DNA from: Shigella phage SF1-1
DNA: 64,000 nucleotides
Sequence record: PQ571307
Strand: one strand, 5' to 3'
Under the pieces are notes generated by a model. The model saw only the letters and a list, made by a program, of their open reading frames with translations. It was not told where the DNA came from and made no database searches. Position numbers and translations under genes: made by a program. Position 1 is the first letter of the stretch. Every line of letters begins with the position of its first letter. Below are positions 112 to 654 of this stretch, one piece after another.

Positions 112-654
112 TCACAAATATCGTCTTTGCGGTATTTTGTCTGGGAAAAGTATTTCGATCAGTTTATTATGATATTTGCCTAAAAGATTTTGCCCTTTCC
201 AGTTGACCGGATTTAGCACCCCTGGTTCATACATTCCCATTCCAATTCCGTAAACCTTATCGTAGGGGCTTGCTTCAACAAACGTTTTGTATTGGTAAAG
301 GTGTAAGTCTGCATACAAATCTGGATTCTGTACATATTTCAAGCATAAACCTCGCATAACAATACGCTCACGGTTCTCTTCCCATACATTGTTATCAAAA
401 TCCGACACTGCCCTACCCATACGTTTGTAATAAGCTTGGATCTTCTCATCTTTCCGTATCAAACTATGAGTCAGAATAGCCTGTGCAGTGTTGTGGTCAT
501 TAAAAAGCAAAGCTTTACGCCACATCATATATTGTTCGACACAATTAAATGTCTGATTGTAACCTGGTTCGGTTTCTGTAAAGGGTGCAATATACCAATT
601 ACTAAAAACATCTTTATGTGAAAAGAAGAATACATAATCATCAGTTATTCGCAT
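112..654 (-). CDS. NADAR/YbiA-like (DUF1768-type) domain protein; possible ADP-ribose or N-glycoside hydrolase
   Basis: 180-aa ORF; N-terminal pattern FFFSHKDVFSNWY...EQYMMWRKALLF resembles the NADAR/YbiA core as I recall it; no search run. Confidence 0.5.
   Translation of the reverse strand: MRITDDYVFFFSHKDVFSNWYIAPFTETEPGYNQTFNCVEQYMMWRKALLFNDHNTAQAILTHSLIRKDEKIQAYYKRMGRAVSDFDNNVWEENRERIVMRGLCLKYVQNPDLYADLHLYQYKTFVEASPYDKVYGIGMGMYEPGVLNPVNWKGQNLLGKYHNKLIEILFPDKIPQRRYL

Follow-up and report, generated by a model that had tools for sequence, protein, structure and literature searches.

Several phage proteins are already known to counteract the DarTG defence systems. Anti-DarTG1 activity, seen as removal of guanine-linked ADP-ribose (G-ADPr) and rescue of plating, has been shown for the NADAR proteins AdfN-T4, AdfN-Bas32 and AdfN-Bas60 (PMC11257639, PMC11825919). 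The last of these comes from BASEL phages Bas60-62 (Johannesman et al. 2025). In uninfected cells it neutralises DarT1, and with it phages that are otherwise sensitive plate again on hosts carrying DarTG1, but not on those carrying DarTG2 (PMC11257639, PMC11825919). For T4 on DarTG2 hosts, a 2025 HIDEN-SEQ preprint reported a single conditionally essential gene, the macrodomain gene tk.4, which was named adfM; a clean tk.4 knockout sensitised the phage to DarTG2 (10.1101/2025.11.20.689424). Here we analysed a 64,000-nt stretch of DNA from Shigella phage SF1-1 (record PQ571307), referred to below as the window, which carries a NADAR gene (112..654, minus strand) and a macrodomain gene (19490..19963, plus strand). 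Judging from sequence and from the precedents above, we consider it reasonably probable that two stand-alone ‘orphan antitoxin’ enzymes encoded by this phage clear its own DNA of ADP-ribose.

The gene at 112..654 specifies a predicted NADAR-family ADP-ribosyl N-glycohydrolase of 180 amino acids. Pfam profile NADAR (PF08719, formerly DUF1768) aligned to residues 11–161 with 123 bits (cut-off 35.1, E = 1.8e-35), the same domain was present in 120 out of 120 listed homologues, and the protein was assigned to phrog_1017. The only solved structure matched by its sequence was 8BAU, the NADAR protein of Phytophthora (PnNADAR) in complex with ADP-ribose (phmmer E = 4e-15), and Escherichia coli YbiA was unmatched among solved structures at E ≤ 0.01. 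An AlphaFold (AF2) model built with 63 homologues had a mean predicted local distance difference test score (pLDDT) of 95.9 and displayed the YbiA-like fold, an alpha-helical core flanked by small beta-sheets. Foldseek comparison of the model with the PDB returned only 8BAU (E = 6.6e-10, template modelling (TM) scores 0.78/0.75) and E. coli YbiA (2B3W, E = 8.9e-7), the next match having an E-value of about 2. A first-pass annotation made from the sequence alone had called this gene NADAR/YbiA-like, leaving its strand unstated, and both the profile score and the fold bear this out.

Residues of PnNADAR that touch ADP-ribose are E43, K50, R79, W89, R93, E125, D130 and W133 (Schuller et al. 2023, PMC11543638). 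Their equivalents in a MAFFT alignment with the window protein are E40, K47, R81, W91, R95, E127, D132 and Y135, so that all eight contacts are retained or conservatively changed (W133 to Y). Across the 63 homologues no change is seen at E40, K47, W91, E127 or D132, and conservation of R81 is 90% or more. Residues E36 and K43 of AdfN-T4, the published catalytic residues, whose mutation inactivates that enzyme, fall in the first two contact columns of the same alignment, which validates the mapping. The first-pass annotation had named conservation of the NADAR catalytic residues, together with family assignment of both genes by profile or structure, as the way to check its proposal; the residues proved to be conserved, and the families of both proteins were confirmed by those routes as well as by their active sites.

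Among characterised proteins, the window NADAR compares most directly with AdfN-Bas60, the NADAR protein of Escherichia phage PaulScherrer (Bas60) and of Bas61-62. It is 59% identical to the Bas60 protein bas60_0111 (E = 7e-69), belongs to the same phrog_1017, has the identical residue at eight of eight ADP-ribose-contact positions and is encoded at a matching place, after ATPase and CapR-like genes. The two loci differ in that a pair of small open reading frames (ORFs) separates the CapR-like and NADAR genes of the window and in that the phages belong to different genera, and the last 15 C-terminal residues of the two proteins are unrelated. Given this identity, the residue match and the synteny, we treat the window NADAR as the Phapecoctavirus orthologue of AdfN-Bas60.

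Glutamate at the position of PnNADAR E125 (E127 in the window protein) is a signature of the YbiA and ‘NADAR’ families, not the aspartate of DarT1-linked antitoxins, and it sets the window protein among the ‘NADAR/YbiA’ types, apart from the DarT1-linked and T4-like ones. This residue, a score of 112 bits (cut-off 73.7) with TIGR02464 (‘riboflavin biosynthesis intermediates N-glycosidase’), and the rank of YbiA as second-best fold match could all be taken to mean that the protein has the housekeeping role of a YbiA-type N-glycosidase, namely destruction of reactive intermediates of the riboflavin pathway. We regard that as very improbable. TIGR02464 models essentially the whole NADAR domain, and a match to it therefore does not discriminate YbiA from NADAR; no riboflavin genes lie near 112..654; and the sequence search that found PnNADAR did not find YbiA. 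A published phylogeny, moreover, groups AdfN-Bas60, which neutralises DarT1, with bacterial NADARs that are neither YbiA nor DarG1 (PMC11825919). YbiA itself removes guanine-ADPr in vitro (PMC11125620). The first-pass annotation had held that a YbiA-type enzyme without an ADP-ribose pocket would undo its proposal, but this was a false dichotomy, as the pocket is intact here and YbiA acts on the same adduct. The YbiA-type reading also underlies the GenBank labels ‘GTP cyclohydrolase II’ and ‘YbiA-like N-glycosidase’.

Two closer affiliations within the superfamily were considered for the window NADAR and rejected. It is not a near relative of AdfN-T4 (blastp E = 4.3; phrog_1017 versus phrog_652), with which it has only the superfamily and the Glu/Lys pair in common. 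Nor is it a DarG1 antitoxin of the BC4488 subfamily: there is no DarT nearby, glutamate replaces the catalytic aspartate, and the N-terminal extension is missing. DarG1 of E. coli C7 has Asp (D171) where the window protein has E127, and its catalytic glutamate is residue 88 rather than residue 40, the window protein being without the long basic N-terminal extension. The NADAR fold and the ADP-ribose pocket are nevertheless common to DarG1, PnNADAR and the window protein, PnNADAR being the best solved match. By analogy with AdfN-Bas60, the window NADAR is likely to be a guanine-ADP-ribose DNA glycohydrolase directed against DarTG1.

The second gene, 19490..19963, encodes a stand-alone macrodomain of 157 amino acids, of the ALC1-like/TARG1 class and the Gln type. 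A longer ORF begins at 19424, but the ATG at 19490 has an AAGGAG Shine-Dalgarno sequence 7 nt ahead of it, just past the stop codon of the preceding gene, and is the preferred start, in agreement with the coordinates given in the first-pass annotation. The match to Pfam Macro (PF01661) was marginal (23.1 bits, cut-off 22). The assignment was however secured by phmmer matches to solved macrodomains (SCO6735, 9.4e-13; BT1257, 9e-9; TARG1, 2e-6; Thermus aquaticus DarG, 3e-6), by membership in phrog_335 (184 bits), by an AlphaFold (AF2) model with pLDDT of 94.4 and a predicted TM score (pTM) of 0.91, and by Foldseek, in which the top 14 PDB matches, among TARG1, BT1257, DarG and SCO6735, had TM scores of 0.74–0.87 and E-values from 1.7e-11 to 5.5e-8. 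The macrodomain call of the first-pass annotation is accordingly upheld. The active-site pattern consists of N26, Q83 and a glycine-rich phosphate loop, G126–G132; among 62 homologues N26, G126 and G132 are invariant and Q83 is at least 90% conserved. No DarT gene lies near the macro gene.

T4 Tk.4 (AdfM) and the window macro protein fall in the same phrog_335 and are 36% identical (blastp E = 6.7e-21). Each stands alone, is about 155 amino acids long and carries, in a MAFFT alignment, the HxCN asparagine, the N-L-Y-(G/T)-Q glutamine and the PxIGxGxxG loop, and both have the same best solved relatives, namely BT1257, SCO6735, Poa1p, DarG and TARG1. The N-L-Y-(G/T)-Q motif aligns with Gln85 of SCO6735 and Lys80 of DarG. 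SCO6735 of Streptomyces coelicolor (PDB 5E3B) is the top match of the window macro among solved structures (32% identity, 9.4e-13); its Gln85, Asn27 and Gly128 region corresponds to Q83, N26 and the glycine loop, and in both proteins Gln replaces the catalytic Lys. Thymidine-ADPr is a substrate of SCO6735, which also rescues cells from DarT and needs Gln85, Asn27 and Gly128 (PMC9411070). It differs in its bacterial housekeeping role, in the greater length of its mobile loop and in de-ADP-ribosylating proteins too.

DarG2 and gp104 of phage PhiKZ are of the same fold class as the window macro (TM about 0.78 to the DarG proteins of T. aquaticus and Mycobacterium tuberculosis (Mtb)), and the same thymidine-ADPr chemistry is predicted for them. 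They have an FPTK motif, with the catalytic lysine (Lys80 of DarG), whereas the window macro has LYGQ (Q83) at that column, as does SCO6735; DarG2 also has a C-terminal DarT-binding domain, which the 157-residue window protein is without. Identity as a DarG antitoxin was rejected, as only positions 1–144 of the 329 in the PADLOC DarG model were matched and the NCBIfam DarG model scored 34.6 against a cut-off of 250. PhiKZ gp104, the second protein to be named AdfM, has an anti-DarTG2 genetic phenotype (PMC13309987) and is a true DarG-clade macrodomain, with the FPTK motif and a match to Mtb DarG at 9e-25. Membership of the window macro in that clade was likewise rejected: just 24 residues aligned with gp104 (E = 0.01), and the FPTK lysine is absent. 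This contrast identifies the window macro as a protein of the T4/SCO6735 type, not of the PhiKZ/DarG type. Whether its substrate is thymidine-ADP-ribose in DNA, making it an anti-DarTG2 glycohydrolase like T4 AdfM, we put at about even, with perhaps a slight lean in favour.

Taken together, the family membership, fold and active-site conservation of both proteins, the orthology and synteny with AdfN-Bas60 and the family shared with T4 AdfM are established here, while their substrates and anti-defence roles are predicted from sequence. In the mechanism that we propose, NADAR would bind the ADP-ribose moiety in its conserved pocket (E40, K47, R81, W91, R95, E127, D132, Y135) and hydrolyse the N-glycosidic bond between the ribose and guanine N2 installed by DarT1 of DarTG1, and removal of ADP-ribose from guanine would let the phage DNA replicate. 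The macro protein, with Gln83 in place of the catalytic Lys of DarG/TARG1, Asn26 and the glycine-rich phosphate loop, would strip the ADP-ribose that DarT2 places on thymidine N3 of single-stranded DNA. The first-pass annotation had suggested that a phage with both genes might be armed against DarTG-like systems, an idea to which homology with AdfN-Bas60 (DarTG1) and T4 AdfM (DarTG2) lends support. E. coli is, in addition, the species in which DarTG1 and DarTG2 were characterised (PMC11257639, PMC11125620, 10.1101/2025.11.20.689424), which we count as supporting context.

A number of observations weigh against this proposal. Although active on G-ADPr in vitro, YbiA and T4 NADAR give uninfected cells no protection from DarT1 (PMC11125620), and the in vivo specificity of NADARs is narrow and hard to predict. 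NADARs of the Glu type, to which E127 assigns the window protein, also act on cytidine-ADPr and on RNA, so DNA guanine may not be the sole or main substrate. On the macro side, identity to T4 AdfM is only 36% and macrodomains are versatile; the protein is unrelated to the DarG-like AdfM of PhiKZ beyond the fold; and its orthologues elsewhere lie beside genes for NadV and phosphoribosyl pyrophosphate (PRPP) synthetase (Pakpunavirus), or near those for RNA ligase (Mydovirus), polynucleotide kinase (PNK; Felixounavirus) or tk (T4), while here the gene follows a HAD-PRTase_3 pair in a Ter cluster.

These gene contexts are among the grounds for a different view, in which both enzymes act mainly on soluble ADP-ribose derivatives (ADPr-1''-phosphate, O-acetyl-ADPr, cyclic ADPr-type immune signals or by-products of NAD-dependent RNA repair), blunting NAD-derived host signalling or cleaning up NAD metabolism. 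Iyer et al. 2021/2022 put this forward in general terms for Macro and NADAR domains of phages on the strength of gene contexts (PMC9503650, PMC7824862), and it agrees both with the NadV/PRPP synthetase, RNA ligase and PNK neighbours of macro orthologues and with the presence of Poa1p, an ADPr-1''-P phosphatase, and OARD1 among the solved relatives of the window macro. All phage members tested so far (AdfN-T4, AdfN-Bas32, AdfN-Bas60, T4 AdfM and PhiKZ AdfM), on the other hand, point to de-ADP-ribosylation of DNA or to anti-DarTG function, and over its homologous 49 kb the closest RefSeq genome has no gene annotated as NadV, Nudix, ADP-ribosyltransferase (ART) or RNA ligase. We therefore give this view a minority share of the probability as an account of what the enzymes mainly do; it is not mutually exclusive with action on DNA.

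One or both enzymes might instead reverse ADP-ribosylation of RNA or protein, such as mRNA modification of the CmdTAC type, G- or C-ADPr on RNA, or the products of phage or host ARTs. Every NADAR family tested strips G-ADPr from RNA as well as from DNA, and those of the NADAR/YbiA kind also remove C-ADPr from both (PMC12945103); SCO6735 and TARG1 act on proteins as well (PMC9411070), and RNA-targeting ART defences exist. No such phenotype is known in the closest relatives, however, whose genetics point to DarTG1 and DarTG2, and no ART gene was seen adjoining either NADAR or macro; we consider this reading improbable. Taken together, the readings in which soluble ADP-ribose derivatives or RNA are the substrate make a serious rival to repair of ADP-ribosylated DNA, particularly for the macrodomain.

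The window belongs to a phAPEC8-like Phapecoctavirus (subfamily Stephanstirmvirinae) and is matched best by Escherichia phage BI-EHEC (99.1% identity over 4 kb). Justusliebigvirus is the sister genus, in which Bas60-62, which are phi92-like phages, are today placed. NADAR and macro genes occupy equivalent positions in both genera, which indicates that both genes predate the genus split. In the window they lie on opposite strands with about 19 kb between them and hence in separate transcription units, in keeping with the first-pass annotation, which had placed them in different transcription blocks; its further suggestion of independent acquisition is plausible.

On the minus strand, the NADAR gene is preceded by an AAA ATPase gene (2279..3418), a gene for a CapR-homology/zinc-finger protein (1202..2209; Pfam CapR, PF21817) and two small ORFs (843..1208 and 641..865), and an ATPase, CapR-like, NADAR order is also seen in Justusliebigvirus. 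The start of NADAR overlaps the stop codon of ORF 641..865, an imperfect hairpin with a T-run follows its own stop codon, and a terminator-like hairpin at 2262-2243 (minus strand) separates the unit from the ATPase gene. The start/stop overlap and the hairpin with T-run make NADAR the final gene of a leftward unit that starts past the hairpin at 2262-2243. A scan for terminators gave only two hairpins worth noting in the window, this one and another at 21260-21277 (plus strand). Neither DarT nor any other ART adjoins NADAR, whose neighbours are the small ORFs, the CapR-like protein and the AAA ATPase. The product of 1202..2209 contains two CapR-homology stretches and a treble-clef zinc finger, and is labelled ‘endonuclease’ in RefSeq.

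A NADAR protein 42% identical to that of the window was found in Burkholderia (Logan assembly SRR6795858, locus L014, 6001-6489), in a prophage-like region beside Gp3-like and DUF7696 genes and with a PLD-family gene downstream; it is not beside a DarT. This context is consistent with orphan NADARs moving on mobile elements and says little on function.

The macro gene lies within a rightward block of nucleotide metabolism and replication genes, which runs from a helicase and ribonucleotide reductases through to DNA polymerase I and single-stranded DNA-binding protein (SSB). Its immediate surroundings, which the first-pass annotation had missed, are those of a Ter cluster. Upstream are genes for a HAD-family hydrolase (17979..18656) and a PRTase_3/ComF-like phosphoribosyltransferase (18649..19476), both recognised by Pfam and NCBIfam; downstream are a small transmembrane (TM) protein (19976..20197) and, by Pfam, TerC (20279..21253), SprT-like (22879..23469), TelA (23466..24578), vWA-TerF-like (25980..26774) and TerD (27285..27887), all on the plus strand. 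The stretch 17979..27887 thus comprises an almost complete phage-borne Ter (tellurite-resistance-type) system with the macro gene inside it. HAD and PRTase_3 genes overlap by a few bases and the macro gene starts 13 nt past the PRTase_3 stop, and the three are probably co-transcribed. TerC has a promoter-like site of its own (20201-20228), and the hairpin at 21260-21277 is a strong terminator-like one. Scans with consensus promoters were uninformative, as promoter-like sites were not commoner in the window than in shuffled sequence.

Phage-borne Ter systems have been described in jumbo phages, where PRTase and HAD were proposed to form a ‘signal biosynthesis’ arm (PMC7824862); superinfection exclusion is a role proposed for such systems. 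By that logic the macro protein could be a working part of the Ter system here, processing or degrading a ribosyl- or nucleotide-like product of PRTase_3 and HAD that would feed TerC, TelA, TerD and TerF. The run of these genes along one strand and the 13-nt spacing would agree with this, as would conservation of the gene order of the cluster, from HAD through macro to TerD, in Bas60, of the sister genus, at protein identities of just 49–65%. Against it, the overlapping HAD-PRTase_3 pair is also found in Xanthomonas, Rhizobium and Brevundimonas phages and in a Fibrobacterota metagenome-assembled genome (MAG), and no macro or Ter gene lies within 5–8 kb of the pair in these four loci (L010, 4333-5816; L011, 4340-5855; L012, 4342-5846; L018, 7249-8804). 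Macro orthologues of T4, Felixounavirus, Pakpunavirus and Mydovirus, in turn, have no PRTase_3, HAD or Ter neighbours, and T4 AdfM, without such a context, already has an anti-DarTG2 phenotype.

An obligate partnership of macro with HAD-PRTase_3 and Ter was consequently rejected as the principal interpretation, the HAD-PRTase_3 pair being able to travel alone, and adjacency of macro and Ter genes is lineage-specific, found in Stephanstirmvirinae only. A functional link between the two seems unlikely. There is a comparably slim chance that the macro protein was recruited into the Ter system of Stephanstirmvirinae, where its target would be a small HAD-PRTase_3 product, ribosyl- or ADP-ribosyl-linked, for example a signal nucleotide that it switches off; it might do so, with as little likelihood, instead of or besides repairing DarT2-modified DNA. 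The tight packing of HAD-PRTase-macro-TM-TerC, kept in both genera, speaks for this reading, and the absence of the association from other lineages speaks against it. Such recruitment, if true, would be the first enzymatic link of ADP-ribose erasers to Ter systems.

A search of genome contigs for PRTase_3 was of limited power, giving two loci only, one of them a phage contig binned into a MAG. This contig (JAEZZU010000022.1, 13 kb, deposited as ‘MAG: Proteobacteria bacterium OH_PFB_59’; locus L017) encodes HAD and PRTase_3 proteins 100% and 99.6% identical to those of the window and runs into the macro gene; it almost certainly comes from a Phapecoctavirus and was assigned to a bacterial bin in error. 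Records MG065650, MG065639, OP562383, MH252123, OR584014 and OK210077 include ones named as Campylobacter, Acinetobacter, Klebsiella, Pseudomonas and Serratia phages. The NADAR, macro or PRTase_3 proteins encoded in them match their counterparts in E. coli Phapecoctavirus or Justusliebigvirus almost exactly (mostly 97–100% identity, just 79% for the Pseudomonas record PsgM04F), and the host labels of these records therefore look doubtful.

Mis-annotation of these genes in GenBank is systematic. NADAR appears as ‘GTP cyclohydrolase II’ and, in phage Eryne, as ‘DNA methyltransferase’; the macrodomain as ‘phosphatase’ or ‘hypothetical protein’; and PRTase_3 as ‘orotate phosphoribosyltransferase’ or ‘Zot-like toxin’. 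The macro coding sequence of Bas60 has, in its annotation, about 95 additional N-terminal amino acids that overlap the PRTase gene, and its start is probably wrong. Correction of the many NADAR and macro labels is one practical use of the present analysis, prediction of host range on DarTG-bearing E. coli another. Phages of the phAPEC8-like group are widely isolated and often proposed for therapy against pathogenic E. coli; if our prediction is true, they carry counter-measures to both DarTG subtypes, and knowing this would help to predict their host range on DarTG-bearing clinical strains.

Possession of both folds by one phage, which the first-pass annotation had singled out, was overrated as a novelty. 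T4 carries both AdfN, against DarTG1, and AdfM, against DarTG2 (PMC11825919; 10.1101/2025.11.20.689424). NADAR has been reported in 27% of myoviruses, and Macro and NADAR co-occur in DNA viruses above chance expectation (Iyer et al. 2022, PMC9503650). Homologues of the window NADAR were found in 718 and those of the macro protein in 2,927 of 50,697 phage records. Pairing of the two in a single phage is not unusual, and since the mechanism, both families and their joint presence in phages have all been published, nothing conceptually new is added here.

T4 Tk.4 and the window macro are distantly related, and their genes differ in setting: tk.4 lies among tk, vs and regB whereas the window macro lies in the order HAD-PRTase_3-TerC. 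The DNA of T4 is modified with glucosyl-hydroxymethylcytosine. If both predictions are true, DNA ADP-ribosylation gains support as a common selective pressure on phages, and the AdfN/AdfM pair known from T4 would extend to a second, unrelated group of large coliphages.

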